Positions 21,674 to 47,215 of a stretch of 59,184 nucleotides of DNA are shown here, in pieces; position 1 is the stretch's first letter, and each line of letters begins with the position of its first letter. Made by a program: the position numbers and the translations under genes. Source of the stretch: a virus (taxonomy: Duplodnaviria > Caudoviricetes); IMG/VR virus record IMGVR_UViG_3300048762_000055, positions 1-59,184 of that record; one strand, written 5' to 3'. A model generated the notes under the pieces. It was not told the DNA's origin and did no database searches. It saw only the letters and a program-made list of their open reading frames with translations.

Positions 21674-21922
21674 ATGGGCGTGAAAGCTTTACGCGAGGCA
21701 TTCGATGCGGCGGCCGATGGTCGCCTATCCTGTCAAAAGGCACTGCTCGATTACATCCGCCAAGATGGTGCCGAATGGCAAAAGCTGAGTTTTTCTGGTA
21801 CCGATTCCACCGGGGCGGCATTCTCGACCGAGTCCGATCTATTGCCGCCGAGAACTGATTTGACTGAGGCCGCGCGCGCGACTGCGACGGCGTTCCTCGC
21901 CAAGGAGAAACCTGCCCCATGA
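21674..21922 (+). CDS. Hypothetical protein
   Basis: GAGG SD; between terL and portal. Confidence 0.65.
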   Translation: MGVKALREAFDAAADGRLSCQKALLDYIRQDGAEWQKLSFSGTDSTGAAFSTESDLLPPRTDLTEAARATATAFLAKEKPAP

Positions 21923-22332
21923 AACTCTCCCGCTTTCTCGCCGTTTGCGCTGTGGCGCTTGCGGCCTGGTTAGGCACCGCGATGGCTCCAGCATCGGCGC
22001 AGGTGGGCTGCAATCAATCGATTTTCTATGACGCATCGACGAATGGTGCCACGAGACTTGTCACCGGCGCTGCGAAAACTCGCATTTTCATCTGCGGCTA
22101 TAATCTATGGGCGGCAGGCACTGCCACCGTCAAATTCGAGACTGGCACCGGGACGGCCTGCGCCACAAATGAAACGGCGATCACGCCAGCCTTTTCGTTG
22201 ACGACGCAGACCGGCGTTCCGGACGATTCCCCATTCTGGCGTGGTCTTACGGTGCAGCCTGGTTTGGATTTCTGCATCAAGACCAGCGCGGGTGTTGCCG
22301 TGCAGGCAATCGTTTATTTCTCTCAGCAGTAA
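21919..22332 (+). CDS. Beta-rich protein with Sec-type signal peptide (possible virion accessory)
   Basis: MKLSRFLAVCAVALAAWLGTAMAPASA|Q; four Cys in the mature part. Confidence 0.7.
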   Translation: MKLSRFLAVCAVALAAWLGTAMAPASAQVGCNQSIFYDASTNGATRLVTGAAKTRIFICGYNLWAAGTATVKFETGTGTACATNETAITPAFSLTTQTGVPDDSPFWRGLTVQPGLDFCIKTSAGVAVQAIVYFSQQ

Positions 22333-22340
22333 GGAACGCC

Positions 22341-22898: not shown

Positions 22899-22903
22899 CC
22901 GCC

Positions 22904-25900
22904 GTGGCTGACGGTGATCTTCAAACCCTCGATCGACCGCCTGCAGACGATGGTATGACAATCGACGGGAATGCTGGCCTGCCGGCGGATGCGCCAGCGG
23001 CTGCGGTATTGTCGATAAGTTCGCTTTCGCCCGGCAAGCAATTCGATGTCCTGAAACAGCTTCATCTTTCCGACGCCGACCACACGAAAGAGTGGCGGGC
23101 AATGGCCGAGGAATGGTTTGCATTCCGCGCCGGCGAGCAATGGACCGCCGAGGACCGGGCCCTGCTCAATAGCCAACAGCGCCCCCATATCGTTTTTAAC
23201 CGTGTGCTGACCATCCTCAAAGCCGTGGCTGGCATGGAAATCAATGGCCGGCACGAGATTACATTCATTCCCCGCGGCACGCAGGATACGGCGGTTAACG
23301 AGATACTCTCGGCTGCGTCGAAATGGATGGCGGATGAGTGCGACGGCGAGGACGAGGAAAGTCAGGCGTTCGACGACACATGCACGGTGGGAATGGGATG
23401 GTGCCTATCCGATGATACGCTGGTGAGATTGCCTGAAACGCACTTTGCGACAACTCGGCTTTATTCAGGGAATGTCATTGAGATCAGCCTTGAAAATGGC
23501 AAGCGTCTGACCGGAACCCCCAATCACCCTGTACTCACGGATATGGGGTGGAAGCGACTGCATGAGATTTGCAACGGCGATAACCTGGTCAACGGCGATT
23601 TTCTTAAGATCATCCCCGGGCTGGCCATGCATAAGTTCGATGATGTTGAAACCCGCCTTCAGGATAGAATAAATGCGTTCGGCACAGGCCGCGAAACTTT
23701 GCGCTTTGCTACGCAGACTTCCGATTTCTATGGCGATGGAGCCGGAAGCAAAGTCCACGTTGTATATGCCGACAGCCTTTTGAGCGATAAGTTCAGGAAA
23801 TCCAAGATCTGCAAACCATTGCTGGAAAATTATTTCATTGGGTGGAATCTTCTTTCGGCGTGGCGCTCCTTTTTCTCTGGCAATGGCTTGGGTAAGCAGG
23901 CGATTCATGCCTCCAAACGTCTTGGATCGTTCCTCGGCAGACATTTTCCATGTCCGAATATGCCTAGCGACCTCATTCCCGCGCAAGTCTCTCCCGGCTT
24001 GGCGAATTCGCCTCGCTACGGTTTCCGGGCTGATTCCGATAAGGCCACCGATTTCGACAGTAGAAAGCCGTTCGTCAAAATACATGGAAATGAGTTTTTC
24101 GGTGGGCGTTGTGACGCAATGGCCTCCGGCGTGGCCGCGCAGAACATGGCCAGCGCGTTTCAACCTACTGGAAACGCTCATCAGGCTTATTCCAACTTTA
24201 TCCCCAATTTTTGCGAGTGGAAGCATCTCCTCGAAATAGAGGCGCGCAAGTTCGGCAGTAGAAACCTTGCAGCGTCGAAATTCATAACGCGGGTTACGAG
24301 CCGGGTCATCCGTCCAGTTGAGGATTTTGCTGTCCATGACGTAGGAACCTCCATTGGGTTTTTCCTTGCTGGAGATATTATTACATCGAACACGGAAAGT
24401 CGAATGTCTTACGAAGATGATCCTGCTGGCCTTTATGTGGAAGATTGCATCGACCCGCGCGAGATGTACTGGGACCGCACGGCTACGAAAAAGAACCTCT
24501 CGAATGCGCGCCGTCTTTCCCGTGTACGCCGTATGCCGCTTGGCGATGCGCTGTCGCTGTTTCCAGGCAAGACCGTGGAGCAATTGGACGCCACATGGGC
24601 CGATGCTGGCCCGATGGATTATCCAAAACGCACCATCGAGGAAAAGCGCAAGCGGGATGCCGATAATTCCTCAATGCAGGAATACGACGATAATTGCGAA
24701 GTCACGCTGGTGCAGATTCAGTGGTTCGAACGTGAGGAATACTGGATTGTCGCCAACACGCAGACCAATACCAAGACCGAATTGAGCGATGCGGAATATC
24801 GGCGATTCGGTAGCCGCATGAAGATGCTCGGTATGCCGGTACATGCGGCAAAGCTTACTCGCAAGGTTTACAAGCAGGCATGGATGGGCGGCGAATTGCT
24901 GCAGAAAGCCGGGCCCGCACCGATCAAAGGCAAGTTCTCTTGGGACTGCATTACTGGCGAATTCGATAAGTCGAAAAAGTCGTGGTTTGGCCTCGTGAAG
25001 GTCATGCGCGACCCGCAGATGTGGGCGAACAAGTGGCTTTCGCAGATCCTGCACATTCTCAACACGACGGCGAAGGGCGGCATTCTGGCCGAGACGTCAG
25101 CATTCGACGATCAGCGCGAGGCCGAGGAAGGCTATGCGCGACCCGATACGATCACCTGGCTGGCTGACGGCTCGCTGTCGGGCGATAAGCCCAAGATCAT
25201 GCCCAAGCCCGGCGCTGGCATGACAGATGGCTATCTCGGGCTCATGACGTTCGCCATCTCGTCGATCAAGGACGTGACCGGCATCAACCTCGAGCTACTC
25301 GGCCAGCAGGATCAAAACCAGCCCGGCATTATCGAGGCCATGCGCAAGCAGGCCGGTATGACGGTGCTGGCGACATTGTTCGATTCGCTCAGGCGGTTCC
25401 GCAAGAACGTGGGGCGCTCGCGGCTGTATTTCATTCAGAATTTCTTGTCGGACGGTCGGCTGATCCGTGTGGCGCAGCCTGATAACGTGCAGGCGATTGC
25501 GCTGGCCAAGGAAAGCACCACCGGCAAATACAGCGTGATTGTGGACGATACGCCGACGTCGCCAAATCAGAAGGAAGCGAATTGGGCGATCATCCAGCCG
25601 TTGCTCGGGGTGTTTAAAGAGCAGCTTATGTCCAATCCGCAGGTGTTCGGGATGCTGCTCGAATACTCGCCGTTGCCTAATCGCATCGTGGAGGCCATCA
25701 AGGGATTCATCGCCAAGCAGCAGAATGATCCGCAGGCGCAACAGGATCAACAGATTGCGAAACATTTGGCGATCACCAAGGAGGTCGCGCAAATCTCCGC
25801 ACTGCAGGCCACCGCTGAAATGAATAACAAAAAGGCCGGGGCTACCGAGGCGACGGCTATGTACGATATTGCCATGGCCCGCAAGATGCTGGCCGATAAC

Positions 25901-26266
25901 GATACGACCGGCCTAGATGCTCACCTGAAGGCCATGGAGGGCGCTGCCAAAGTCCAGACGGCTGCGGCCACTGCGGATAAGACTACTGCACAGGCTGCCC
26001 GTGAGCGTGCTGGGGTCGTGAATGACCGGCTAGAGACGCACGCCAAGGTCATAGGGGCTGTTTCTGACGCTCATCGGGCGACTACCGATGGCCAAGCGTC
26101 GCATGTGGGGGCTCTCATCGATCATATTGGCGCTATCGGTGGGCTGCATCGCGATCTTGCTGCGGCGCACAAGGATCATGTGAATGCGACGCGCACGGAG
26201 GCAACCCCCATTCCAGTTCCGCAACCGCAACAGCCTCAACCGTCGGCATCGCCTGGTGGGCCGTGA
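22904..26266 (+). CDS. P22-like portal protein with intein (about 790 aa spliced)
   Basis: F..GEQW, RPHIVFNRV, GMGW, FGLVKVMRDPQMWANK, VTGINLELLG. Confidence 0.9.
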   Translation: MADGDLQTLDRPPADDGMTIDGNAGLPADAPAAAVLSISSLSPGKQFDVLKQLHLSDADHTKEWRAMAEEWFAFRAGEQWTAEDRALLNSQQRPHIVFNRVLTILKAVAGMEINGRHEITFIPRGTQDTAVNEILSAASKWMADECDGEDEESQAFDDTCTVGMGWCLSDDTLVRLPETHFATTRLYSGNVIEISLENGKRLTGTPNHPVLTDMGWKRLHEICNGDNLVNGDFLKIIPGLAMHKFDDVETRLQDRINAFGTGRETLRFATQTSDFYGDGAGSKVHVVYADSLLSDKFRKSKICKPLLENYFIGWNLLSAWRSFFSGNGLGKQAIHASKRLGSFLGRHFPCPNMPSDLIPAQVSPGLANSPRYGFRADSDKATDFDSRKPFVKIHGNEFFGGRCDAMASGVAAQNMASAFQPTGNAHQAYSNFIPNFCEWKHLLEIEARKFGSRNLAASKFITRVTSRVIRPVEDFAVHDVGTSIGFFLAGDIITSNTESRMSYEDDPAGLYVEDCIDPREMYWDRTATKKNLSNARRLSRVRRMPLGDALSLFPGKTVEQLDATWADAGPMDYPKRTIEEKRKRDADNSSMQEYDDNCEVTLVQIQWFEREEYWIVANTQTNTKTELSDAEYRRFGSRMKMLGMPVHAAKLTRKVYKQAWMGGELLQKAGPAPIKGKFSWDCITGEFDKSKKSWFGLVKVMRDPQMWANKWLSQILHILNTTAKGGILAETSAFDDQREAEEGYARPDTITWLADGSLSGDKPKIMPKPGAGMTDGYLGLMTFAISSIKDVTGINLELLGQQDQNQPGIIEAMRKQAGMTVLATLFDSLRRFRKNVGRSRLYFIQNFLSDGRLIRVAQPDNVQAIALAKESTTGKYSVIVDDTPTSPNQKEANWAIIQPLLGVFKEQLMSNPQVFGMLLEYSPLPNRIVEAIKGFIAKQQNDPQAQQDQQIAKHLAITKEVAQISALQATAEMNNKKAGATEATAMYDIAMARKMLADNDTTGLDAHLKAMEGAAKVQTAAATADKTTAQAARERAGVVNDRLETHAKVIGAVSDAHRATTDGQASHVGALIDHIGAIGGLHRDLAAAHKDHVNATRTEATPIPVPQPQQPQPSASPGGP
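23402..24391 (+). mobile_element. Portal intein (330 aa), ends TSN|T, with no in-frame endonuclease
   Basis: W|CLSDDT...LTGTPNHPVLT..GW...VHDVGT...ITSN|T. Confidence 0.88.
23465..24337 (-). CDS. Antisense gene inside the portal intein: two HTH repeats plus Vsr/DUF559-like endonuclease
   Basis: LARLYFEEMLPLAKIGDKVGIS and LISMYFDERLSTVEIGGLIGIS HTHs; NE..F...QKAVGIYNVDFA...IAIEI; GGAGG 10 nt before ATG. Confidence 0.8.
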   Translation of the reverse strand: MDSKILNWTDDPARNPRYEFRRCKVSTAELARLYFEEMLPLAKIGDKVGISLMSVSSRLKRAGHVLRGHAGGHCVTTPTEKLISMYFDERLSTVEIGGLIGISPETVARRIRQAGRDLRGNEVARHIRTWKMSAEERSKTFGGMNRLLTQAIAREKGAPRRKKIPPNEIIFQQWFADLGFPELIAQKAVGIYNVDFASGSIAIEIGSLRSKAQSFAACAERIYSILKAGFNIIELMHGQPGDDLKKIAVDQVIAVANLMQSLPPHIREYRVIGGSGQTLAIFKADLNDIP

Positions 26267-27760: not shown

Positions 27761-27786
27761 TATGGTAGGGCTTTACAAGATGCACT

Positions 27787-28145: not shown

Positions 28146-28149
28146 AACG

Positions 28150-29259: not shown

Positions 29260-29277
29260 ACGGAGGCTTGATTAGCC

Positions 29278-29712
29278 ATGGCCACTAATACCGCTGCTGT
29301 TGTGCCTCCGACGCGCCAAGACCCCAGGCAAGTCGTCAATACGCTGAAGCAGATCATCAACTTCAACGACGCAGGGGCCGCTACCGGCATTCTCTGGCAG
29401 AACTCTCTGCCCGCCGGTGCTGTCATCCTCGGCGTGGTGGTTGAAATCCTGACGGCCTTCAACGCGGGCACCACCAATCCGATCACCATTGGCACGGCCC
29501 TGACGGGCAGCCAGCTTGGGAACGGGGCGGGTGCTGGCACCGATCTTGATCCGACGGTTGTCGGCGCGACTTCGGTCAGCCGCGGGCTCGGCGGCAGCCT
29601 CGCTGCTGCTGCGGATACGCCGCTCTACTACAGCTATATCCCGACTGGGGCTGCGGCGACCACCGGGCAAGCGCGGGTCACCATCATGTACGAGGGCGGC
29701 TGGTCGAGCTAA
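29278..29712 (+). CDS. Capsid decoration/cement-like protein
   Basis: LPAGAVILG...AFNAGTTN.ITIG...ATTGQARVTIMY; directly after the capsid gene. Confidence 0.7.
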   Translation: MATNTAAVVPPTRQDPRQVVNTLKQIINFNDAGAATGILWQNSLPAGAVILGVVVEILTAFNAGTTNPITIGTALTGSQLGNGAGAGTDLDPTVVGATSVSRGLGGSLAAAADTPLYYSYIPTGAAATTGQARVTIMYEGGWSS

Positions 29713-29751
29713 TCGGCCATCTTCATCCGAATTCAACGAGAGAGACTGACC

Positions 29752-30159
29752 ATGTTCAAACGATCCCTCGGCATCCTCGGCGCGCTGGCCATCGGCGCGT
29801 TGCTCTTGGCGGCACCGGCGCTGGCGGTCGACACCTCGCTTGACGGCAATTTGCGCGGCAACTGCGGCACGGCCACCGGCACGTCGAACGCCTCGACGCT
29901 TGCGAACAAGTGCGGTCTGATTACCACAGAATCTGCCTCGACTGCTGCGGCCGGTTCGTTCACCGAAACCATTACCGACACCGTCGTTGCGGCAACCGAT
30001 GTCTGCCTCGCATCGGTGCAGACCGGCGGCACCGGCAGCCCGGTAGTCATGAAGGTGACGCCGGCGGCTGGTTCGTTGGTCATCCTGATCAGCAACGTGC
30101 ACGCCACCGCGGCGTTCAACAATACCCTCGGCATCAGCTTCTTCTGCATCAAGAAGTAA
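29752..30159 (+). CDS. Beta-rich head-region protein with signal peptide, paralogue 1
   Basis: MFKRSLGILGALAIGALLLAAPALA|V; CGLITTES...NVHATAAFN. Confidence 0.75.
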   Translation: MFKRSLGILGALAIGALLLAAPALAVDTSLDGNLRGNCGTATGTSNASTLANKCGLITTESASTAAAGSFTETITDTVVAATDVCLASVQTGGTGSPVVMKVTPAAGSLVILISNVHATAAFNNTLGISFFCIKK

Positions 30160-30188
30160 GCCGGATCTCGCTTCGGAGGTTCTGACCA

Positions 30189-30665
30189 ATGCTCAAGCGC
30201 GCCTTTATCGCTTTGCTTGCTGTCGGCTTCATGTCGGCGTCGGCTTGGGCTATTCAGCCGGGTACCAGCGGCACCAATAAGCAGAACCAGTCGCAGGGAT
30301 TTCGAGTTGGCGTTCTGGAATGCCTCAATAATGCGGCAACGGCATCCTCGGGCGCGGCGACGCTCAATGCTGTTGGCCTCCTGCCGACGGCCTGCGGCGT
30401 GGTCACTTCGGAATCACTGACGACTGCGGCGGCTGCGACCTACACGCTGACGCTGACCAACAATATGATCGCCGCTGGCGATATCGTGCTCGCTACTGTG
30501 CAACTTGGCTCATCCACCACCGGAATGCCGGCGATTGCGACCGTGACGACTGGAGCGGGATCAGTTGTGATTGTGGTGCAGAATATTCACGCATCGGCCT
30601 CCCTCAACGGCACGATCAAAATCAGCTATATCCTGGTCAAATTGAGCAAGACCGACAGCGACTGA
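30189..30665 (+). CDS. Beta-rich head-region protein with signal peptide, paralogue 2
   Basis: MLKRAFIALLAVGFMSASAWA|I; CGVVTSES...NIHASASLN. Confidence 0.75.
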   Translation: MLKRAFIALLAVGFMSASAWAIQPGTSGTNKQNQSQGFRVGVLECLNNAATASSGAATLNAVGLLPTACGVVTSESLTTAAAATYTLTLTNNMIAAGDIVLATVQLGSSTTGMPAIATVTTGAGSVVIVVQNIHASASLNGTIKISYILVKLSKTDSD

Positions 30666-30689
30666 CCATAGTCGCAGAAGTGCGCGACG

Positions 30690-31373: not shown

Positions 31374-31383
31374 AAGGCGCATA

Positions 31384-33434: not shown

Positions 33435-33435
33435 T

Positions 33436-33864: not shown

Positions 33865-33866
33865 CG

Positions 33867-35308: not shown

Positions 35309-35316
35309 GGTAAAAC

Positions 35317-37197
35317 GTGGCCGGACTTCTCGACAATCTGCTGGCGAGCTTGGTTGCATCCAATATGCAGCAGCCGGGCAATAGCTATTCGCCAACGGGG
35401 GCGGAAGGCATTCCCGATCCGTCTGCAGTCGATCCCTTTGCCAATGCTCCGGCTCCTGCCGCGCCAAAACCGGCAGCGCAGCCGTTTGGGCCGGTCGCTG
35501 GGCTACTCAACGCGCCGGCCGGATCGCCCTATAGCCAGCCAGCGGGGCCGTTCGATCAGCCGCCGGCCACCAATGACGTGCAGGCGCAGGAACCCCAAGT
35601 TTTCAAGGATGGGGTGCCATTGCCCAAGCCTAGGCCGGATACGGGCCTCAATGGACGCGATGAGGCGGCCACTGGTGCGCCGCTTTCGCTTTCCCCTCCC
35701 ATGCCATCGGATTCGGCCCAATTGCCTCCCGGTGCCACTCCTACGGGCCCTGCGGCCCCTGCGGCGGCTCCCGCGGCATCTTCGGGGGGTGGAATTGGCG
35801 GTTTACTGGGGAATGTGGCCGGAAAACTCTTAGACCCGAATCATGCCGCGACTTGGATGGCGCTGGCTTCCGGGTTTGCGGGTGCGCCGTCGCTCGGGAT
35901 GGGCATTGGGCGGGCTGCGGCTGCGGCTGGACCGGCCATGCAGGCTGATCGGGCCATGCAGATGAAAATGCAGGGTATTCAGGCGACCTACCAATCCGTT
36001 CGCCAAGAATTGCAGGCCCAAGGCGTTCCGGCCGGCGAGGCGGCAAGCAAGGCGCTTGCAATGGCGCAAAACCCCGATTTGTTGAAAGCGATGGCGCCGC
36101 AAGTATACGGCACTAACCCGCCGGAATGGAAAGAGGTGGCGCGAGACGCCATCGGCAATCCGATCATGGGTCTGGTTGACGTCCGAAAGGGCACGATCAA
36201 CGGCACACCAATGGCAAAATGGCAGGCTGGTGATACCGCTGGCGGAGGCGTTGCTGGGGGTCCAGGAGGTGCGACCAGCGTCGATCCATCCTTGACTGGT
36301 CAGGCTTTCCTCGATGCGGTAAGCAAAAATCCGAAATTCGGACCCGGCGAAGCTTCGAAGGTGCAGGGCATCGCGGAAGGTAAAATCGCATATCCGACCG
36401 GATTCATCATGAAAACGCCTTATGGGCGGTGGTTGACCAATGCGGTTGGCCAATATGAGCCGGGTATTGATTCGACCAAGATCAATCAGCGTAAGACCTT
36501 CAATACCCAATTAGGTTCCACCACGCCGACATCAATCGGCGGGCAAAAGAATCTAATGGGAACCTCGCTAGGTCATCTTGGCGAGGTCGCAGACGCCGCA
36601 GTATCGTTGCAAAATAGTTCTGGCCCATTGCCTAATTGGATACCGGGTAGTGCACAGGTTGCCCAGGGCATCAACGCCGTTTCCAATACCAGCGTTGACC
36701 GGCAGGCGAAGGCAAATGCATTGAATGACGCAGTGCAGAAGCTTTCCGGCGAACTTGGCAAACTTTATTCTGGCTCATCTGGCGGTGGGATCGCAGAACG
36801 CGAACAAACTCAATCGAGATTTGGACCAAGTCTGACGCCGCAGGCCATGGCGGCATCCTTGGAAATGAGCAAGGCGCTTATCAATTCCAAGCTCGCGGCA
36901 TTGGAAAATCAGCAAGATCAGATTTTCGGACCTAATAATCCGGGGCGCACTGATTTCTTGGGTACAAATGGGCGTGCCGCAATTGCGAAGATTGATTCGG
37001 CCATTGCTCGCTTGCGTGGCCAGCAGCCTGGGGCTGCGGCCGATACCGGTCCTCCTGCTGGCGTCCCGGCTCCTGCTGGTCCGGCTGCTGCCGCGCCGAT
37101 GGCTCCTGCACCAATGGCACCGCCGCGCGCTGCTGCGCCGCCGCCGGGCAATTACGTGTATAATCCGGCGACACGCTCGCTGGTACCGGCCCAATGA
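35317..37197 (+). CDS. Ejection/internal virion protein
   Basis: MAGLLD start, Ala/Gly/Pro-rich, position. Confidence 0.7.
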   Translation: MAGLLDNLLASLVASNMQQPGNSYSPTGAEGIPDPSAVDPFANAPAPAAPKPAAQPFGPVAGLLNAPAGSPYSQPAGPFDQPPATNDVQAQEPQVFKDGVPLPKPRPDTGLNGRDEAATGAPLSLSPPMPSDSAQLPPGATPTGPAAPAAAPAASSGGGIGGLLGNVAGKLLDPNHAATWMALASGFAGAPSLGMGIGRAAAAAGPAMQADRAMQMKMQGIQATYQSVRQELQAQGVPAGEAASKALAMAQNPDLLKAMAPQVYGTNPPEWKEVARDAIGNPIMGLVDVRKGTINGTPMAKWQAGDTAGGGVAGGPGGATSVDPSLTGQAFLDAVSKNPKFGPGEASKVQGIAEGKIAYPTGFIMKTPYGRWLTNAVGQYEPGIDSTKINQRKTFNTQLGSTTPTSIGGQKNLMGTSLGHLGEVADAAVSLQNSSGPLPNWIPGSAQVAQGINAVSNTSVDRQAKANALNDAVQKLSGELGKLYSGSSGGGIAEREQTQSRFGPSLTPQAMAASLEMSKALINSKLAALENQQDQIFGPNNPGRTDFLGTNGRAAIAKIDSAIARLRGQQPGAAADTGPPAGVPAPAGPAAAAPMAPAPMAPPRAAAPPPGNYVYNPATRSLVPAQ

Positions 37198-40100
37198 CCA
37201 TCAATGTTCAAGGCGCAGACGGCTCTAACTTCGCCTTTCCTGACGGAACGGCCGAGGCTGATATCACTGGTGCCATGGATGCCCATTACGGGGCTCCCGC
37301 TGCGCCGGCTGTACCTTCTGCCGAGCCAATCAGCGCGACCAATCTGGCCCGTTCTGCCGCGCGCGGGGTTCCGATCGCTGGTGGTCTAGTCGACAAGGCA
37401 GAGGCGGCAACTGAGGCGGCACTGGCCCCGGCGGTCGAGCCATTCCTGACGCCGGGCCCCAATAGCCTTATGCCCTCCGGTGGCTTCGGTGCCCGCTATG
37501 CCAAGGCGCTCGCCCTTCAGCAGGCCAAGGATACCGGTTTCGATACCGCCCATCCGGTTACCTCGACTGCGGCTAAGATCGCCGGCGGCGTCGGTTCCTT
37601 TGGTGGCGCGATCAAAGCAGTTCCTGAGCTAGCCAGCACACTCGGCTTCGAAGGCACTATTCCGCAGATGATCACCAAAGGCGCGGTGTCTGGTGCTGGC
37701 CTAAGTGCGGCCGATGCGCTGACGCGCGGCGAGGATCCCGGCACTGCTGCGGTGGAAGGGGGTGCTTTGGGTGCTGTCGGTGGTCCGACTGGTCGGCTAA
37801 TTGGGAAGGCCGTGGGCGCTGGCATGCGCGCGGTCCGCGGCGCCCCTGCGCTTGAGCACGCCGTCACTACGCCGGTAGCAGGGGTGGACGTGCCGGTTCC
37901 TACGGCCGATCCGGCGGTCGCTTCTCAGATCGAGATTGCGCGCCGCGGTGGTGCTGGCGTTCCGGCCCAGCAGGTAGTGCAAACCGGTGACCAAGGTGTG
38001 CAGTCCGCACTCGATCAGGCAAAGGGCAATATCGGGGCCTCGCTCGATCCGAATGCCTCGCCGGCGGCAATACCGCAGGATTCAGCCGCATCGGTGGCTG
38101 CCGAATTACAGGCGAATGAGGCCAATCGGTTCCAGACCGAACAGGGGGTCATGCAGCGGGCATTACAAGCCACGCAGGAGGCATCGCAAGGCACTCAGGA
38201 CATTCGCCAAAGCCTCGATACGACTGTGGCCCCTCCAGAGGTCATTCAGGCGGCCCATGACGATTTCGCCAAGTTTGGGCCTAAAAATGCCTTCGTTCCT
38301 CAAAAAGCGCAGGCAATCAGTGATAAATTCGGGCCACGGGCTGCCGAAGGATATACGAGCGAATATGATCGACTGATCGCAGCGAATCAGCAGGCGGTTC
38401 CCGTTACTACCGGAGCAGGAATAGGCGCGGAACCAAAATTACCGGCTACCCCTGCTGGCCTAGATACGGACGTATTAACCCCAGCCGCCACCCAAGCCGC
38501 TCAAGAAGCCCCCCCAATTAGCCCTCCTGCGAGCGGAGTAGCCCCCCCAAATCCGGCAACTATCCCTGCCATACACGCAGAGTCCCCCCTAGCAGCAGGG
38601 GAAGTGCTCTCGGCTGGCATCCAGCGCAAGGCCGAAGAGGCTGCGGCGACCAGAACTGCGGCTTATGCGGCCAAAGCTGCCATTCCCGGCGAATACAACG
38701 CCGCGGCGCTCAAAGGTTCCGGCAATGCGATACGCAATGCACTGAGTTCTGGACCCGATGCAGTCCGTGTTTCCGAAGGGTTAACTCCGCGCGCATCGCA
38801 GGCTTTGCAAATTATCGATGAGACGATTGGCGGAAAGCCCCCGGCTGTTCTCCCGAATGAAGCCACGCCTTTCACCGCAGTCCGCGGCGAGGGTGGAAAG
38901 TTCGAGAGTGGACAAGCACCGCAGCCGATCACCGGCGAGACGATGGAGGATGTTCGCAAGCAATTGAACATGCTCTATGGCGATTCAATGCGAGCCGCCA
39001 ATGGGCCGGGCGGAAATGCCACAGACCTGCGCGCTATGCGGCGGATCATTGATGCTTTCGACACCCATATCGGCAACGTCGAGGATGCTGGTGGGTTCTC
39101 AGGCGATGCCGATGCGTTGGCGAAAGCCCGTGATGCCGCACGCGCTTCCCATGTAGCTTATAAAACGACTTTCCAGCCTCGAAATCCCGGCGATAAGACA
39201 GGGGCGAGCATCGAGAAAATAGTCGGGAAATTCGATGGTCAGGAAGCCGGTCCAGATCAGATTATGCAGATGGCCTATGGTTCTCCTGCGGAGCCGGGCG
39301 GCACGCCAGCAGCGCAATTGGCGCAGCGAATCAAATCGATGTTCGGTGAGAATTCGAAGGAATGGGCGGCCTATAAGCAGGGGTTGCTCTCGCATCTTGT
39401 CGATAATCCAGACGGCACGCCGCGGGATGCCCTTGACGCAGCCGCGCGCATCGATAAATTTCTAAAGGCTCCGAAGGGTAAAATCCTATCGCAGACGGCA
39501 TTTACCGCCGATGACCGGGCGGCGCTGGCGAATCACGTCGAAAGATTGAATTCCTCTCAAGCAGATTTGCAGGCGGCCCAGCCGGTAGCCCTGAAAGACC
39601 TCGGCGCAGTGGACAAGGTTATTGCTCGCATCACCGGTCGTGATGGTGGACCTCCCGCTTCGCTCAATGACGTGACCAATTTTCTTTTTGGTCCTACTGC
39701 TGGCAAGAGCTCAGTGCAGCAAGCGACGGTTTTGCATCTTAAGCGCGTTCTTTCTCCCGAAGGATTTAGCGCACTGCAAAACGGCATGTGGAAGCACTTG
39801 ACCGATGTGCCGCCCGGTAAGCTTTCGGTTACGGCGCAGCATATTTGGTCGAACCTCGATCAGTTTTTCAATGGCTCCGGTAGTGCCGTGTCGAAGGCCC
39901 TTTATCCTGAGAACGTGCGCGTCGAGGGTCAGAGATTGGCCGAAGCTTTCAAGGCGCAAATTCCTCTGCCAGGAACAACTAACCCATCAGGAAGCGCGAC
40001 GATTGGCTCGCAGATTCTTCGCAAGTCGGCAAAGAGCATCCTTCCAATCATCGGCTATATGCACGGCGATCTATCTGGTGCAGTGGCCGGCGCGCTTGCA

Positions 40101-40259
40101 AACAAGGTGGTCGAGCCGATAGCAGCTCGACGCGCCGCTAGACAAATTGGTTCGCTTTATTATGGCCCGCAGCCTAAAGTGCCGATCGACCCTCGGTTTG
40201 CTAAAGCGGCAGGCATCCTTACTCGGGGCGCCGCTCAGGGGCAGGTCGGCGGTCCCTAA
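37194..40259 (+). CDS. Large ejection/DNA-transfer protein
   Basis: 1021 aa, Ala/Gly-rich, FPDGT N-terminus, NPSGSA near the C-terminus. Confidence 0.7.
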   Translation: MTINVQGADGSNFAFPDGTAEADITGAMDAHYGAPAAPAVPSAEPISATNLARSAARGVPIAGGLVDKAEAATEAALAPAVEPFLTPGPNSLMPSGGFGARYAKALALQQAKDTGFDTAHPVTSTAAKIAGGVGSFGGAIKAVPELASTLGFEGTIPQMITKGAVSGAGLSAADALTRGEDPGTAAVEGGALGAVGGPTGRLIGKAVGAGMRAVRGAPALEHAVTTPVAGVDVPVPTADPAVASQIEIARRGGAGVPAQQVVQTGDQGVQSALDQAKGNIGASLDPNASPAAIPQDSAASVAAELQANEANRFQTEQGVMQRALQATQEASQGTQDIRQSLDTTVAPPEVIQAAHDDFAKFGPKNAFVPQKAQAISDKFGPRAAEGYTSEYDRLIAANQQAVPVTTGAGIGAEPKLPATPAGLDTDVLTPAATQAAQEAPPISPPASGVAPPNPATIPAIHAESPLAAGEVLSAGIQRKAEEAAATRTAAYAAKAAIPGEYNAAALKGSGNAIRNALSSGPDAVRVSEGLTPRASQALQIIDETIGGKPPAVLPNEATPFTAVRGEGGKFESGQAPQPITGETMEDVRKQLNMLYGDSMRAANGPGGNATDLRAMRRIIDAFDTHIGNVEDAGGFSGDADALAKARDAARASHVAYKTTFQPRNPGDKTGASIEKIVGKFDGQEAGPDQIMQMAYGSPAEPGGTPAAQLAQRIKSMFGENSKEWAAYKQGLLSHLVDNPDGTPRDALDAAARIDKFLKAPKGKILSQTAFTADDRAALANHVERLNSSQADLQAAQPVALKDLGAVDKVIARITGRDGGPPASLNDVTNFLFGPTAGKSSVQQATVLHLKRVLSPEGFSALQNGMWKHLTDVPPGKLSVTAQHIWSNLDQFFNGSGSAVSKALYPENVRVEGQRLAEAFKAQIPLPGTTNPSGSATIGSQILRKSAKSILPIIGYMHGDLSGAVAGALANKVVEPIAARRAARQIGSLYYGPQPKVPIDPRFAKAAGILTRGAAQGQVGGP

Positions 40260-40410: not shown

Positions 40411-40414
40411 CGGT

Positions 40415-41167: not shown

Positions 41168-41175
41168 AATAAATT

Positions 41176-41685
41176 ATGGCTGAGAGCAAAAAACATTACC
41201 CTTCAATTGATCGCATCCGAGAACTGTTCACATACGATGAAAACAGCGGACTTTTCTTTTGGCACATCAACAAAGGAGAAATGAGAATTGGCGATATTGC
41301 TGGATCAGACAATGGTCGCGGATATATTCGTCTTACAATAGATGGAGATCGTCGATTAGCTCATCTGGTTGTTTGGTTCTTAAAGATGGGTGTCTGGCCA
41401 ACTCACAAAATTGATCATGAGGATGGTGATGGCTTTAACAACCGATGGAGCAATTTGAGGCGAGCTACACAGGCAGAAAACCTAGCAAACAAACGCATTT
41501 CATCGAGAAATAAAAGTGGATTTAAGGGTGTTATCTTTGATGAGGATAGGCAACTATTTCGTGCTGAAATTACAAAGGGATCATACAGAGAATTCCTTGG
41601 CCGATTTAGAACAGCGGTAGAAGCTCACGCAGCCTATGCGGCTGCGGCGCACCGAATACACGGCGAATTTGCGAGGATACAATGA
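41176..41685 (+). CDS. Free-standing HNH-AP2 homing endonuclease
   Basis: RIRELFTYD..SGLFFW, IDHEDGDGFNNRWSNLR, SGFKGV, LGRFRTAVEAH; AT-rich. Confidence 0.9.
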   Translation: MAESKKHYPSIDRIRELFTYDENSGLFFWHINKGEMRIGDIAGSDNGRGYIRLTIDGDRRLAHLVVWFLKMGVWPTHKIDHEDGDGFNNRWSNLRRATQAENLANKRISSRNKSGFKGVIFDEDRQLFRAEITKGSYREFLGRFRTAVEAHAAYAAAAHRIHGEFARIQ

Positions 41686-42671
41686 GTTTCTGGCAATGGT
41701 CAAAAATAGCGGCGAATAACGCTACAGCCGATCCTTCCATAAACTATAGCGTCGGCATGAGCCCGTCCTCTGTGGACGCATCGGGCCGCGCCCAAATGGC
41801 CCGCACCGCTGAATTCCGCGATGATACTTCCGGTCTGTTGGTGACTGCTGGCACCGCCACGGCCTACACGGTCACAACCTATGAAGGATTGGCGGCCACT
41901 CCGAACGACGGCCAGCTTATTGCCTTCACGATGAATGTGACAAACGGAGTTGCGGCCACTCTGACCTGTGATGGCGGCAATACCTACCCGCTCCAAAGCA
42001 GTCCCGGCATTGCGGTGCCTAGCGCGGTGCTTATCGCAGGGACGCCATACACCGCGAAATTCTCTACGGCTAATTCATCTTGGATAATGCGCGATTTCTA
42101 CGGCAGTTCTTTCGTTGTTCCGATTGGTGGCTTGGTGCCGTATCTCGGTGCGACGTCTCCGAATAGCAATTTCGTTCTGCCTTATGGACAGGCGATTTCC
42201 CGCACGACTTATTCAGCGTTGTTCGCGCTTGTCGGCACTACTTTCGGCGTTGGCGACGGAACGACGACCTTCAACGTGCCTGATTTGCGCGGGCGCACTA
42301 TTGCGGCGATCGATAATCTTGGCGGTACTGCGGCCAATAGGCTGTCGACAACTTATTTTGGCTCCGATCCGACGGTGCTCGGCGATGTCGGCGGTTCGCA
42401 AAATCATACGTTGACGCAGGCCGAACTTAGTACTGCCTTGGGTACAGCAACTTCTGCCGTTAGTGGCACAATTTCCAACCCCAATGGATTTACGCAGGGT
42501 GTCTTTATCGGCGCAGGCGGTGGAGGTGCCGGTACAGGAACGCAAACCACTAACGGGATATCTACAGCTGGCATCACAGTTTCTACGAGCATCACGAACT
42601 CATCGGGCGGCAACGCCCACGCCATCGTGCCGCCGATGATGGTAATTTCCTTCATACTGCGGGTGTTATAA
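41682..42671 (+). CDS. Tail fibre protein with tail-collar domain
   Basis: VPIG...GQAISRTTYSALFALVGTTFGVGDGTTTFNVPDLRGR. Confidence 0.9.
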   Translation: MSFWQWSKIAANNATADPSINYSVGMSPSSVDASGRAQMARTAEFRDDTSGLLVTAGTATAYTVTTYEGLAATPNDGQLIAFTMNVTNGVAATLTCDGGNTYPLQSSPGIAVPSAVLIAGTPYTAKFSTANSSWIMRDFYGSSFVVPIGGLVPYLGATSPNSNFVLPYGQAISRTTYSALFALVGTTFGVGDGTTTFNVPDLRGRTIAAIDNLGGTAANRLSTTYFGSDPTVLGDVGGSQNHTLTQAELSTALGTATSAVSGTISNPNGFTQGVFIGAGGGGAGTGTQTTNGISTAGITVSTSITNSSGGNAHAIVPPMMVISFILRVL

Positions 42672-43100
42672 ATGACAGTGCTCACCAGCGATCTCCGCAA
42701 TACCCGCCAATCCGCGCGCGAGCTCCGGTTTGAGCCGACTGGTTCGATCTCGGCGACGAATGTGCAAACCGCCATTCAGCAGGCATCGTCGCAACAGCTC
42801 GCGCTGGTGCCGACGACGGTCGCTTTCGCCGCATCGCCATATCCCGTGAAATCGACCGATACGTTTCTCGCGATCGATACATCTGGCGGTGTGGTGGTGA
42901 TCGACTTGCAATCGGCGGCATCGCGTCTTGGGGTTCCGCTGACGATCAAGGACGTGACCGGTCATGCGGCGGCTTATCCGATGAGCGTGGTGCCGAATGG
43001 TGCCGAGACGGTCGACACGCTTGCGCCCTATCCGATCACTGGCGATTTTGGCGGTGTAACGCTTATTCCTCAGACCGGAGGCTATACAGTCTCGCCATGA
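42672..43100 (+). CDS. Tail fibre-associated adaptor protein
   Basis: ATNVQTAI and TIKD..G.A......V.PNGAET.D motifs seen in fibre proteins. Confidence 0.6.
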   Translation: MTVLTSDLRNTRQSARELRFEPTGSISATNVQTAIQQASSQQLALVPTTVAFAASPYPVKSTDTFLAIDTSGGVVVIDLQSAASRLGVPLTIKDVTGHAAAYPMSVVPNGAETVDTLAPYPITGDFGGVTLIPQTGGYTVSP

Positions 43101-46100
43101 AATTCCTCACTCGCATCGTCGCCGTTCTCGCGGTCCTATCGTCGGTCGCTTTCGCCCAGCAGGGCACGCAGCTTCCATCCGGAAATTTGTGGGGCAATCC
43201 GACCGCATCGCGGGCGCCCGGCAAGCCAGCCACGCCGTCGTCGATCTTCGATCAGGCATTTTCTGCGACACAAGGCTCATTGCTTTATCGCAACTCAACG
43301 GTGTGGACACCGCTAGGTCCCGGCACTGCTGGCCTGCCGCTACTTTCTGGTGGCGCAGGTGCAAACCTCGCCTATGGAATTCTAGGCTTGCCTGCTGGCG
43401 GTCTCGGCGGGTCGCAAGCTGCTGCGACAGCAGGCCAGATCCCGGTATATCCGGGATCTGGAGGGGCGGCCGTCCCGAGCAGCTTCACACAGACCGGCAC
43501 TGGCGCTGTCGCACGCGGCATCTTCGACAAGGTCGCCGACTGGCTTAATGCAAAAGACTTTGGTGTCCTTTGCGATGGCTCGACGAATGACGTAGCCAAT
43601 ATCAACAAGGCTATCGTAGCCGCTAATGCAGCGGCGGCAGGCACACTGGAGGGCCAAGTTGGTGTTCAACTTCCGGCCGGTGTTTGTATGGTCGGCACAA
43701 CGCAGATTGAAATTCTTGGTAACGTTTGGGTGCGTGGTGCTGGCATGGGCATCACGACTTTGCAACTGCCGGCTGGTTCGCCATTTTCGACCGACATTAT
43801 CGAGATCAATACAGGGTCCTCTATCGCAAATGTGCAGGTGTCCGACCTGACGATTGATGGCAACAACAACACTGGCGTTTCTGGCAGCAGCATCTTTGCG
43901 CAAGGCGTCACCAACCTTATTATTCAACGTGTTGAAATCTCCCGCATGTATGGAATGTTCGGGATCCTGGGCCAAGGTATCCTTGATAGCTACATCATGG
44001 ACAACCGCTGTAAGCTGACGACGGCACGGTCCACGCAGAACGAGTGTATTATTCTCACTCAAGCGCTCCCGAACAATAACGTTATTGTGGCGCGGAACAC
44101 GCTCATAAACAGCGGCATGGAGGCGGACGGCACGCGTCTTAAAATTCTCGACAACACTATCACCGGCTGGAATTTCGGCGCAGGTATCGTCATGGGCCCC
44201 TTCGTGGGGACCTATGACAACATTGTTACCGGAAATCACGTTTATAGCAGCGGCCTCGGGCCGGACAGCAGCGTTACATACCCGGTGTGTTTGGAGATTT
44301 GGTCGTACAAAACCGTCATTGCGAATAACGTCGTACACGACTGTGCTGGCTCCGGCATTTCCTCTGGCGGTGATAGCAATACAATCGTAGGCAATGTCAC
44401 CTATGACAATGGCCGTAACGCGGCGTCCACAACAGGACTGAGCGGTATTATAATTCAATATTATGCAAATAATTTGTGGTCGAATGGTAGCAACAACATT
44501 GTCAGTGGCAACCGATCTTACAACACAAACGGCGTGGCTGGTCCGCAAACCTACGCTGTTGAGATAAACGCTCTCATCACGGGCCTTAATCTAGGGATCA
44601 ACTCTTTTGCTGTTGGGTCTCTGGGCGTAGTGAGCAATTCCAGTCTCGCCACGTCTACCTTGTCAGCGCCTCTGGTTCTCAACGGAAGCACCAGCGGCTC
44701 CGCAACAATTGCTGCACAAGCTGTCGCGGGAACACCTTCCATTACGCTCGGCACGTCTAGCGGAACCCCGGCTGTGGCGGCTACGGCTCCGCTCGCGATC
44801 ACGGCGGCGACGGGCAACATCACCTGCACCGGTTGCCTCACAAATACCCCGGCAGCCCTGACCAAGACAGACGACACGAACGTCACCCTGACGCTCGGGG
44901 GCACGCCGACAACTGCGCTGCTGCAAGCTACGTCCCTTACACTGGGTTGGACGGGTACACTGGCCAATGCGCGTCTAGCGACGATGGCGACAAACACTGT
45001 TAAGGGCAACGCCACCGCAGGCACGGCATCCCCGACCGATCTCGCGGTGAGCACCTGCTCGACTGCCGCGTCGGCTTTGATCTGGACCACTAACACCGGC
45101 TTCGGGTGCAACACATCAATCACGGCGGCTGCGGTACCCGTCGGCGGCATCACTGGTCTCGGCACGGGTATTGCTACGGCCCTTGCAGTCAATGTAGGAA
45201 CGGCTGGCGCTCCCGTCATCAACGGCGGCGCGTTGGGTTCCCCTTCGTCAGCTGGTACATTGCCTGCTTACACGCTCGGCGGCACAGTCTCTGGTGGCGG
45301 CAATCAGATCAACAATGTCATTATTGGCACCAGCACCCCCCTTGCAGGATCGTTTACGGCGCTTACAGCTTCAACATCTGCTATAGTCACTTCAGCTTCA
45401 GCAAATGCGCTAACCGCCGGTCTTAATGGTGCGACGCATCCCGCCTTCAATGTGGATGCTTCAACTGCATCACAAACGGCAGGTTTGAATGTCAAAGGTG
45501 CAGCGCTTAATGGCACTGTTGCTGTTGCTGTCATTGACACTAGTGGCAACACCAATCTGACAATCAACGCTCTAGGCAGTGGTACTATCGGTATTGGAAG
45601 CGTCTCGACTGGTGGAGTAACTATAACTCCTGCCACAACTATAACAGGAATCACGACCCTATCTAATTCAACAGCAGCAAATGGCCCCAATCAAGGCGCG
45701 CTACAAGTAACTGGTGGCATCTGGGTTGGTGCAGACAGTTATTTTTCTGGCTCGAACACACTATTCGCTGGTACAGCATATTACCAAGGAAATCTTGGTG
45801 GGACTTACCCGAACACTAATTCTGGTGTTGCTCTAGGCGGTAATTTTTCCAACGGAAACTCCGAAATAGATTTTTTCAATACTACAACTGTAGCAACTGA
45901 TAGTTTTAGATTTTATCAACAAACAGGGGCTTCTGCGGCAACTTTAGTAGCTGAGATGTTAAAAACATATTTCAGTGTGCCATTAACGACCGCAACGACA
46001 AGCACAACAACAGGATCAATCGTAGCTGGAGGTGGCATTGCTGCTGGGGGAGCAATCGCAGCAACTTTAGCTAACGCAGCTACAACAAGCGCGGTTTGCT

Positions 46101-46459
46101 ACAACACAGGAACCGGGCTTTTCTCCTACGACGGCACGCTCGGCACCTGCACGATTTCCGACGAGCGCCTAAAAAACATGGGACCGCGCATTCCGAACGC
46201 GCTGGAAAAGCTGCTCAAGATCAACGGCGTGTACTACACTTGGAAAGACCCAGCGATGGGAAAAGGACGGCAGATCGGCATGGGCGCGCAGACGGTCGAG
46301 CGTGTATTTCCAGAACTCGTGCAGACTGACTCGCACGGAACAAAGAGCCTGGACTATCAGCGCCTCACCGCGCCGATCATCGAGGCCATTCGAGAGTTGA
46401 AGGCTGACAACGACAACCTGCGGCATGAAGTCGAACAACTGAAATGGAGAGTGAGATGA
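43097..46459 (+). CDS. Tailspike/receptor-binding protein: pectate-lyase-like beta-helix, fibre segments, C-terminal S74 chaperone, N-terminal signal peptide
   Basis: NAKDFGVLCDGSTND, beta-helix repeats, SDERLKN...GMGAQ.VE.VFPELV...LDY; MKFLTRIVAVLAVLSSVAFA|QQ. Confidence 0.85.
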   Translation: MKFLTRIVAVLAVLSSVAFAQQGTQLPSGNLWGNPTASRAPGKPATPSSIFDQAFSATQGSLLYRNSTVWTPLGPGTAGLPLLSGGAGANLAYGILGLPAGGLGGSQAAATAGQIPVYPGSGGAAVPSSFTQTGTGAVARGIFDKVADWLNAKDFGVLCDGSTNDVANINKAIVAANAAAAGTLEGQVGVQLPAGVCMVGTTQIEILGNVWVRGAGMGITTLQLPAGSPFSTDIIEINTGSSIANVQVSDLTIDGNNNTGVSGSSIFAQGVTNLIIQRVEISRMYGMFGILGQGILDSYIMDNRCKLTTARSTQNECIILTQALPNNNVIVARNTLINSGMEADGTRLKILDNTITGWNFGAGIVMGPFVGTYDNIVTGNHVYSSGLGPDSSVTYPVCLEIWSYKTVIANNVVHDCAGSGISSGGDSNTIVGNVTYDNGRNAASTTGLSGIIIQYYANNLWSNGSNNIVSGNRSYNTNGVAGPQTYAVEINALITGLNLGINSFAVGSLGVVSNSSLATSTLSAPLVLNGSTSGSATIAAQAVAGTPSITLGTSSGTPAVAATAPLAITAATGNITCTGCLTNTPAALTKTDDTNVTLTLGGTPTTALLQATSLTLGWTGTLANARLATMATNTVKGNATAGTASPTDLAVSTCSTAASALIWTTNTGFGCNTSITAAAVPVGGITGLGTGIATALAVNVGTAGAPVINGGALGSPSSAGTLPAYTLGGTVSGGGNQINNVIIGTSTPLAGSFTALTASTSAIVTSASANALTAGLNGATHPAFNVDASTASQTAGLNVKGAALNGTVAVAVIDTSGNTNLTINALGSGTIGIGSVSTGGVTITPATTITGITTLSNSTAANGPNQGALQVTGGIWVGADSYFSGSNTLFAGTAYYQGNLGGTYPNTNSGVALGGNFSNGNSEIDFFNTTTVATDSFRFYQQTGASAATLVAEMLKTYFSVPLTTATTSTTTGSIVAGGGIAAGGAIAATLANAATTSAVCYNTGTGLFSYDGTLGTCTISDERLKNMGPRIPNALEKLLKINGVYYTWKDPAMGKGRQIGMGAQTVERVFPELVQTDSHGTKSLDYQRLTAPIIEAIRELKADNDNLRHEVEQLKWRVR

Positions 46460-46686
46460 GGTTTTATTGGTTTGCTATTCCATTTGCGTTGCTCGCAGTC
46501 CCCTCCTTCGCACAGCAACCAGCGCCGCCGACCACAACTACCGTGCCTAGCCAATTGCTGACGACTGGCGCGGTATTCCAGGGAAATACTTCTGGTGCCG
46601 CTGCTACATCGGCCACTGGCGTTTTAACCTCATGCGTCCTGAGCGGTGAAACCGTTACGGGATTCACGCAATCAAACAATATCTAA
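46456..46686 (+). CDS. Small protein with signal peptide
   Basis: MRFYWFAIPFALLAVPSFA|QQ; ATGA overlap. Confidence 0.6.
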   Translation: MRFYWFAIPFALLAVPSFAQQPAPPTTTTVPSQLLTTGAVFQGNTSGAAATSATGVLTSCVLSGETVTGFTQSNNI

Positions 46687-47213: not shown

Positions 47214-47215
47214 AC

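Follow-up and report, generated by a model that had tools for sequence, protein, structure and literature searches.

The virus record IMGVR_UViG_3300048762_000055 (Duplodnaviria; Caudoviricetes), analysed over its whole length of 59,184 bases (the window; about 91% complete by CheckV), encodes five late proteins that begin with leaders of the Sec type: 21919, 29752, 30189, 43097, and 46456, each named by the first base of its gene. Comparison with homologues indicates that these leaders are genuine cleavable signal peptides for Sec and signal peptidase I, which are kept as a property while their sequences drift. On the same comparative grounds, actual export, cleavage, and oxidation of the proteins are very likely. 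Their membership in the virion, with attachment at lysis, is evenly balanced. A periplasmic pathway for the finishing of virions had been proposed in the initial annotation of this DNA. Its export and oxidation half gains strong comparative support, as leaders are conserved in three families, cysteines go with the leader, and the register of the cut is fixed; the other half, in which the parts would join particles at or after lysis, is now favoured rather than demonstrated.

By capsid comparison, the phage is of the Bcep22/933W short-tailed type, and its capsid protein has 51% identity with the one from Rhizobium phage RHph_Y1_10. The host is probably a Pseudolabrys/Bradyrhizobium-like soil alphaproteobacterium, because the sole bacterial locus with the N-terminal module of 43097 in a scan of a genome collection is a prophage in a Pseudolabrys metagenome-assembled genome (identical to viral locus L160), and because one 21919 homologue carries the genus name Pseudolabrys. 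The late genes form a single, tightly packed block on the plus strand from about 17.8 to 50.9 kb. It runs from the terminase with inteins through 21674, 21919, 22341, the portal (P22_portal), the scaffold, the major capsid protein (Phage_capsid_3), and 29278 to 29752, 30189, 30690, 31384, the ejection proteins (33867-40259), an SLT lysozyme-like protein, and an HNH endonuclease, which are followed by the collar fibre 41682, 42672, the 1120-residue fibre 43097, 46456, two wall hydrolases, and a holin candidate. The leader-bearing proteins and the two leaderless tail proteins compared with them are as follows (arrows mark predicted cuts).

21919-22332, plus strand: 137 residues, leader 1-27 (ASA↓Q; MKLSR-[18 hydrophobic]-PASA↓QVGC) and a four-cysteine jelly-roll domain; between terminase and portal.
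29752-30159, plus strand: 135 residues, leader 1-25 (ALA↓V; MFKR-...-APALA↓VDTS) and a beta-sandwich knob domain with four cysteines; paralogue of 30189.
30189-30665, plus strand: 158 residues, leader 1-21 (AWA↓I; MLKR-...-SASAWA↓IQPG) and a knob domain as in 29752, with two cysteines.
41682-42671, plus strand: collar-domain tail fibre (PF07484, E 8.1e-17), leaderless, one cysteine; the conserved tail-docking fibre of the lineage.
42672-43100, plus strand: 142 residues, leaderless; candidate adaptor or docking piece upstream of 43097.
43097-46459, plus strand: distal fibre or spike of 1120 residues with leader 1-20 (AFA↓Q; MKFLTR-IVAVLAVL-SSVAFA↓QQGT), a module at about 21-95, a beta-helix at 151-489, a shaft, and S74 at 1021-1075.
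46456-46686, plus strand: 76 residues, leader 1-19 (SFA↓Q; MR-FYWFAIPFALLAV-PSFA↓QQPA), one cysteine; GGAG a few bases 5' of the ATG, gene status unsure.

All five N-termini take on the layout of Sec/signal peptidase I substrates (basic n-region, h-region of about 8-18 residues, small residues at -3 and -1), with a short basic start, 8-18 hydrophobic residues, and a small-x-small site. The basic-hydrophobic-AxA leaders described in the initial annotation were found again in all five open reading frames (ORFs), with the same coordinates, plus-strand orientation, and starts. A recount of the mature cysteines likewise returned 4, 4, 2, and 12 for 21919, 29752, 30189, and 43097, to which 46456 adds 1. 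Leaders were scored with a rule of our own, not SignalP, under which the N-terminus must carry a net positive charge, an uncharged stretch of 12 or more residues must begin within the first 15, and the Kyte-Doolittle mean over 10 residues must reach 2.0. The rule flags 6 of the 31 late-operon ORFs (the five and 50256-50588), 100 of 6200 shuffled late proteins (1.6%), and 14 of 308 six-frame ORFs of at least 60 residues. Capsid, scaffold, and collar fibre, for which the absence of a leader had been claimed, are not flagged by it; no leader is present in the terminase, portal, scaffold, capsid, 29278, 30690, 31384, the ejection proteins, the SLT protein, 41682, or 42672.

The fibre 43097, whose start forms an ATGA overlap with 42672, belongs to a large family. 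A HMMER search with its residues 1-110 against 1.84 billion representatives yielded 1718 proteins at E ≤ 1e-3. The best 150, eight others, and the window's own protein make up a set of 159 sequences, of which 154 remain as module-bearing proteins once those without a module match are removed. The leader stands immediately before the module in 72 of the 154; in the other 82 the module is internal, behind various leaderless N-terminal domains. Within the 159-sequence set, small-x-small↓Gln is found at the cut in 72 of 75 leader-bearing proteins, and Gln21 of 43097 (43157-43159) is invariant in 19 of 19 aligned N-termini. The Gln at +1 in this family recalls the "Q-rule" of Bacteroidota signal peptidase substrates, though the likely host is an alphaproteobacterium.

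Downstream of the module, 43097 is built as a tail fibre or spike with an S74 chaperone. The C-terminal S74 domain (PF13884, residues 1021-1075) is matched at E 7.9e-11, which exceeds the curated cut-off, the gene lies in the tail module, and residues ~670-1119 have matches in 63 viral loci; PHROG tail-fibre families are matched as well. The beta-helix at 151-489 resembles the A-module of mannuronan C5-epimerase (E 3e-8). The local pairing of cysteines that had been noted in this protein holds throughout, as all twelve fall into six neighbouring pairs (159/197, 305/317, 398/416, 577/580 in the motif CTGC, 654/671, and 1001/1018), the last of them just N-terminal to S74. A homologue of 42672 lies directly upstream of the leader fibre in four of the five relatives whose fibre match reaches the leader (L161, L162, L164, and L165); in the fifth, L160, an unrelated 114-residue ORF takes this position. 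All homologues of 42672 are leaderless, with 0-1 cysteines. Look-alikes of 42672 are only viral, with a weak lead to the N-terminal domain of T4 gp9/gp10.

The closest comparison between leader-bearing and leaderless proteins is offered by the collar fibre. In 41682 the collar domain follows a conserved N-terminal domain, the arrangement that characterizes Phage Tail Collar proteins, and the protein is 47% identical to the annotated tail fibre of Bradyrhizobium phage ppBeUSDA76-2. Its N-terminal domain has 180 homologues at E ≤ 1e-3, and a leader is present in 72 of the best 120. Of these 120 rows, 11 are fragments or variants that lack the start motif W-x-W and were set aside, so that the comparison covers 70 forms with a leader and 39 without. 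In 69 of the 70 leader forms, the cut predicted by the -3/-1 rule lies exactly two residues N-terminal to W-x-W (e.g. AYS↓AFWQWSK), and in 35 of the 39 leaderless forms W-x-W lies two residues after the initiator methionine (MAFWQWSK). An initiator methionine is removed before Ala or Ser, and it is Ala or Ser, not Gln, that stands at +1 in the collar family. Because the predicted cut and methionine removal both end at the same site, the two routes are predicted to give an identical mature N-terminus, assuming that the methionine is removed. The mature N-terminal domains of the leader forms show a median identity of 62.1% to 41682, versus 58.6% for the leaderless forms, which suggests that the docking function is retained in the leader-bearing collar fibres.

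Several further observations concern the collar fibre. The HNH gene 41176-41685 is wedged between the SLT gene and 41682, with its end overlapping the start of 41682, and occupies the site where L163-L165 encode the leader of the collar fibre. Two database proteins, the leader-bearing collar fibre P0234 (N-terminal domain 70% identical) and the leader-bearing module fibre P0003, may come from the same sister phage with leaders on both fibres. In Microcystis phage Mae-JY35 (L189), the ORF 6600-7832 follows a leaderless collar fibre and a tail fibre; its hydrophobic start ends in ASA↓A, with no basic residue preceding the hydrophobic stretch, and the protein has four cysteines.

The register of the cut bears on the view that the hydrophobic stretches are uncleaved membrane anchors, buried trimerisation helices, or miscalled starts, and that the proteins stay in the cytoplasm. 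Such a view could draw on the home-made leader predictor and on the over-extended starts of some database homologues. It is nevertheless very improbable, as a positive-inside layout and small residues at -3 and -1 are kept in hundreds of diverged homologues, the predicted cut coincides with the N-terminus of the leaderless collar forms, even and paired cysteines occur solely together with a leader, and no in-frame ATG follows the leader of 43097 before residue 198.

The third family is that of the jelly-roll protein 21919. A leader is recognized by our rule in 70 of its 73 homologues at E ≤ 1e-3, and in two of the other three it is visible behind an over-long start. The domain has exactly four cysteines in 71 of the 73, and 30 aligned sequences all keep C31, C59, C81, and C119; Gln is usual at +1 (Gln28 of 21919, 22000-22002). 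The AlphaFold2 model (predicted local distance difference test, pLDDT, 89.6) is all-beta, with a jelly roll after the leader helix. Against the predicted viral structures of BFVD, it gives 71 matches at E ≤ 1e-3, mostly phage proteins of 105-120 residues, three of which are named virion (structural) protein. The top rows among solved structures (Z 8.3-8.4) are XepA of PBSX, two archaeal virus turret proteins, and YomS, and the cement protein of KHP40 follows at Z 7.3. XepA and YomS (Z 8.4 and 8.3) are thus level with the viral turret proteins, in a range that the tool rates as middling, and Foldseek found no match in the PDB at E ≤ 0.001 for the models of 21919 and 30189. The 21919 domain was found in 100 viral stretches, and the window's neighbours are common to only 3 of 80 kept loci; the position between terminase and portal is kept in L080, L096, and L098. 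Elsewhere, the domain lies mostly within structural modules and forms the C-terminal end of longer leader-bearing proteins, e.g. of 626 residues (L081, after a tail-fibre gene) and 595 residues (L102). Among 50,697 cultured-phage records, tblastn of 21919 and of 29752 returned only two remote matches each; the one in a Synechococcus phage carries no annotation.

The knob paralogues 29752 and 30189 have orthologues on four close viral contigs (L003-L006) at 46-55% identity, in which the leaders are kept and their sequences differ; no counterpart is present in RHph_Y1_10. In L005, the second cysteine pair of 29752 is no longer kept as a pair. For the model of 30189 (pLDDT 70.9, core above 80), the top 25 VIA rows include 8 C-terminal domains from phage tailspikes, tail fibres, or pyocin fibres (Z 5.2-6.9), and matches in this Z range comprise LKA1 gp49, phi297 gp61, AP22 gp54, Pam1, R-pyocin fibre tips, and lectins. 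At the sequence level, the domain of 30189 forms the C-terminus of fibre-like ORFs (450-813 residues) or makes up small leaderless proteins directly after capsid genes, the latter without the cysteine pair. In other phages, the 21919 and knob families therefore serve as knobs or tips of virion appendages. The initial annotation had called 21919, 29752, and 30189 decoration proteins, which is a putative role; they are knob or jelly-roll domains, which elsewhere form fibre ends or follow capsid genes. Conservation of the leaders in homologues, which had been named as a check, was found in each family (70/73, 72/154, 72/120, and the orthologues on L003-L006).

Cysteines go with the leader in three families. 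In the collar family, 67 of the 70 leader forms have an even, non-zero number of cysteines (43 of them four; one has none and two are odd), while the 39 leaderless forms have none (22), an odd number (12), or an even number (5); the densities are 1.13 versus 0.19 per 100 residues. The module of the fibre family carries a cysteine pair at two fixed places in 24 of 72 leader proteins versus 0 of 82 others (Fisher 1e-9), and among 81 N-terminal modules both cysteines are present in 21, neither in 60, and a single one in 0. The number of mature cysteines in this family is even in 63 of 72 leader proteins versus 44 of 82 leaderless ones, at densities of 1.17 versus 0.34 per 100 residues. In the knob family, the common cysteine pair is found in all four leader-bearing rows and in none of the five leaderless rows.

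The order of the tail genes is similar in five related modules, where ejection proteins, a lysozyme-like gene, a collar fibre, a 42672 homologue (4/5), a leader fibre (5/5), and lysis genes are found. The leader fibres of these relatives are 378-449 residues long, with a far end that differs from 43097. The collar fibre bears a leader in three of six modules, L163, L164, and L165, whose forms have four cysteines. In the stretch from ejection proteins to lysis genes of L164 and L165, all fibre-sized ORFs listed are leader-bearing. L162 and L165 contain two more leader-bearing ORFs between fibre and lysis genes, and in L160 the leader fibre follows other small ORFs.

Signal-peptide genes in a late operon are known from lambda, in which lom and bor are secreted-protein morons. 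A moron usually brings a promoter and a terminator of its own and is not a relative of virion proteins. Consensus scans of 17.5-50.9 kb, which may miss alphaproteobacterial promoters, found no promoter-like or terminator-like sites flanking 21919, 29752, 30189, 43097, or 46456. The first strong hairpins on the plus strand are at 50989, 52443, and 53277, and 21919 (whose start overlaps the stop of 21674-21922), 43097, and 46456 each overlap the preceding stop. Because no such flanking sites were found, the five leader genes do not fit the classical moron type; 52558-53130, boxed by two of the hairpins, does. The window resembles lambda in that signal-peptide genes lie among the tail genes of a temperate-type phage. 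It differs in that the five genes lack a promoter and terminator of their own and that homology to fibre or knob domains is seen in three of the four families. For lom, a description is given in PMC12309495.

A mixed case, in which the fibre or fibres are exported virion parts and 21919, 29752, 30189, and 46456 are secreted-protein morons for host benefit, overlaps the periplasmic-finishing reading as to the fibre. It would account for the many unrelated phage backgrounds of the 21919 domain, for the absence of 29752 and 30189 counterparts from RHph_Y1_10, and for the lack of relatives of 46456, and it has a clear terminator-flanked cassette, 52558, to point to. We nonetheless regard it as improbable: the small genes have no promoter-like or terminator-like sites around them, 21919 overlaps the upstream stop and keeps its place between terminase and portal in three loci, and both domains elsewhere end long fibre-like proteins or directly follow capsid genes.

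The proposed pathway comprises export, periplasmic folding, and docking at lysis, and we hold the whole chain with middling confidence. The outward-facing appendage proteins (43097, 21919, 29752, and 30189) would cross the inner membrane through Sec as unfolded chains. In the periplasm, signal peptidase I would remove the leader, leaving an N-terminal Gln on the fibre 43097, and neighbouring cysteines would be oxidised to disulfides in a DsbA-type reaction. The fibre would trimerise via its own C-terminal S74 chaperone, with no cytoplasmic factor required. In the cytoplasm, capsid, portal, tail hub, and the leaderless 41682 and 42672 would be built onto the DNA-filled particle. The exported parts would be stored in the periplasm until inner membrane and wall are breached by the holin and both wall hydrolases (46686-48397), so that particles first meet the periplasmic parts at this point. 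Docking would then proceed by the mature N-termini, with the fibre probably placed on 42672 or on the collar fibre.

Docking at lysis is inferred because leader-bearing collar fibres retain the docking domain, because the tail modules of L164 and L165 have no leaderless fibre-sized ORF, and because 42672 is a constant partner. Moreover, P22-type spikes are added last to podovirus particles and can also be added in vitro, so attachment after lysis is physically plausible. Membership in the virion is further favoured by leader-bearing proteins of Cellulophaga phage phi18:3 (NC_021794), a cultured short-tailed phage of the Pachyviridae. Its gp085, gp086, and gp087 are annotated in the record as structural or tail proteins "based on experimental MS/MS" (tandem mass spectrometry). 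These are three consecutive large late proteins just ahead of the lysis region, and, like the window's leader-bearing proteins, they begin with a basic-hydrophobic leader, which ends in S↓Q or A↓Q. Unlike in the window, the host belongs to the Bacteroidota, and the proteins have 0, 1, and 3 cysteines, i.e. no disulfide signature. By analogy, and as far as the annotation of the record goes, phi18:3 is the closest thing to evidence for leader-bearing proteins in tailed-phage particles.

The proteins could alternatively be exported without being virion parts; for the tailspike, masking or destruction of the receptor had been raised in the initial annotation. A fibre-derived protein that cuts or binds polysaccharide, together with the small knobs, would then act from the periplasm on the envelope of the infected or lysogenic cell itself, either by trimming or masking the receptor, which would exclude newcomers and keep progeny from sticking to debris, or as an aid to lysis; the leaderless 41682 would be the sole receptor-binding protein of the virion. 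The beta-helix of 43097 resembles those of secreted mannuronan C5-epimerases, the 21919 model ties with XepA, a protein of a prophage lysis cassette, and the extra leader-bearing ORFs in L162 and L165 lie between fibre and lysis genes, all of which fit such a role. Leader-bearing genes of unknown function that obey the Bacteroidota Gln+1 rule are described in a study on Porphyromonas phages (PMC10367356), whose authors take leader-bearing phage genes as envelope modifiers. A purely envelope-directed role would leave L164 and L165 with no leaderless fibre candidate in the listed region except the 145-residue homologue of 42672. It also sits poorly with the collar fibre, which is itself leader-bearing in most of its best homologues with a docking domain that is no less conserved, with the long shaft and S74 chaperone that 43097 shares with virion fibres, and with genes that have no promoter or terminator of their own. 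This alternative is rather unlikely; in its favour are also the missing docking domain of 43097 and the single fibre of ppBeUSDA76-2.

Several points weigh against periplasmic finishing of virions, and some of them concern the fibre. The module of 43097 adjoins the leader directly, with no separate docking domain, and in leaderless relatives other N-terminal domains precede the module, so the leader may have replaced a docking domain. In ppBeUSDA76-2 only a leaderless collar fibre is annotated between the lysozyme genes, and because the collar fibre stands alone at this locus, the second fibre, 43097, could be accessory. Residues 1-110 of 43097 and 42672 found no tblastn match in the 50,697 cultured-phage records. 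As to the cysteines, the leader fibre of L161 has five, 46456 has an odd count of one, and a Pfam scan of 94 window ORFs (29 + 65) detected no phage-encoded thiol oxidoreductase (Dsb, thioredoxin). In a FastTree phylogeny of the collar N-terminal domain with cysteines masked, the leader state changes at least eight times, with only one independent pair on well-supported branches, so an ancestry-corrected test has no power. A cysteine-leader link that is independent of ancestry is therefore unproven, and the sequence argument rests on recurrence in three unrelated families. Finally, the fold matches are middling (Z below about 8.4; Foldseek PDB E no better than 2e-3).

Two classes of known virion proteins can be set beside this proposal. 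In filamentous Ff phages, g3p and g8p are virion proteins with Sec-type leaders, and g3p has periplasmic disulfides. Sec-type leaders are proposed for virion proteins here as well; unlike Ff, whose particles are extruded and never cytoplasmic, a DNA-filled tailed particle would meet the exported parts at lysis. With endosialidase-type fibres and P22-type spikes, 43097 shares S74, a beta-helix enzyme-like domain, and a fibrous shaft. It differs from them in its leader and its 12 paired cysteines: to our knowledge, known S74 fibres and P22-type tailspikes have no signal peptide and fold in the cytoplasm. Exported endolysins are a third, non-virion precedent. Lys44 of Oenococcus phage fOg44, with a Sec signal peptide, and signal-arrest-release (SAR) endolysins such as P1 Lyz are described in PMC6116005 as stored outside the cytoplasm until the holin fires. 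Late phage proteins pass, or in the window would pass, through the host Sec ahead of lysis in both cases, but the leader-bearing proteins of the window are homologues of fibres, spikes, and knobs without muralytic domains, and the window's own endolysins 46686 and 47216 are leaderless, unlike Lys44.

The lysis genes, and three further leader-bearing ORFs that the initial annotation had overlooked, are the following.

46686-47213, plus strand: lysis gene, GH108 muramidase.
47216-48007, plus strand: lysis gene, peptidoglycan-binding domain and M15 peptidase.
48017-48397, plus strand: lysis gene, holin candidate with two transmembrane segments.
50256-50588, plus strand: 110 residues, leader, four cysteines (CVC...CTC), Gln-rich tail; at the end of the late operon.
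52558-53130, plus strand: 190 residues, leader; between terminator-like hairpins 52443-52470 and 53277-53300.
55221-55829, minus strand: 202 residues, leader (AIA↓QQ), two cysteines; among recombination genes.

The ORF 52558-53130, with a homologue in L161 that is 45% identical, is an ordinary moron-type cassette outside the fibre set. The orphan 46456 has no relatives in any fetched locus and only one cysteine, and it contributes nothing to the interpretation; an alternative start at 46444 would lengthen its frame by MESE. A lipobox ([LVI][ASTVI][GAS]C) is present at the cut in none of the five leaders, which sets them apart from lipoprotein signal peptides and o-spanins, and 46456 and 50256 were rejected as spanin or lipoprotein candidates for lack of a lipobox. 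A scan of 46-54 kb revealed no convincing lipobox ORF, i.e. no outer-membrane spanin near the holin; separate lipobox ORFs exist 3' of the holin in the relatives L163 and L165. An inner-membrane spanin candidate is 51383-51808, which has an N-terminal membrane helix and a Pro-rich tail.

Elsewhere in the window, intein or homing-endonuclease insertions lie in four genes. The terminase (18076-21612) contains a Hint and LAGLIDADG insertion plus a second Intein_splicing match, the portal (22904-26266) carries about 330 additional residues, for which there is a weak intein match, the helicase (3782-6349) matches Hom_end_hint and LAGLIDADG, and a 620-residue late protein (48397-50259) carries an intein with HNH. 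Free-standing HNH genes start at 16812 and 41176. The ejection-protein homologue 33867-34958 (phrog_4287) has a Peptidase_S74 match at residues 287-335, an unusual site for this chaperone domain. Further genes encode a small serine recombinase with a Resolvase domain (53967-54605, minus strand), a RecT-like protein (56487-57725, minus strand), a GcrA-like cell-cycle regulator (7065-7529), and an N6/N4 DNA methylase (12153-13361); no tyrosine integrase was seen in the window.

In the textbook view, tailed phages are assembled wholly in the reducing cytoplasm, and no description of Sec-exported tailed-phage fibres came up in full-text searches of the literature. The new elements are the family sizes, the collar fibres that occur in matched forms with and without a leader and share one mature end, and the cysteine statistics. 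Read jointly, and held with slightly less than even confidence, these data would mean that, in several bacterial phyla, tailed phages run a second line of assembly outside the cytoplasm, in which fibres, spikes, and knobs are exported through Sec, disulfide-bonded or otherwise modified, and snapped onto cytoplasm-built particles just after the holin fires. The fibre family of this lineage would toggle between the cytoplasmic and the periplasmic route, with two disulfides gained or lost each time and an identical mature N-terminus.

Because the collar-fibre family is a natural experiment, with matched leader and leaderless forms that share the same mature end, the question is directly testable. 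If the proposal is true, particle completion would need Sec, signal peptidase, and Dsb functions of the host as well as proper timing of lysis. Fibres may then bear disulfides, and possibly other modifications made only in the envelope, which would harden them outside the cell. Recombinant receptor-binding proteins and depolymerases of such phages would need periplasmic expression, and such genes would be mislabelled by gene callers and annotators that take a signal peptide to argue against a structural role. It would apply to the host-recognition parts of a large group of soil phages.

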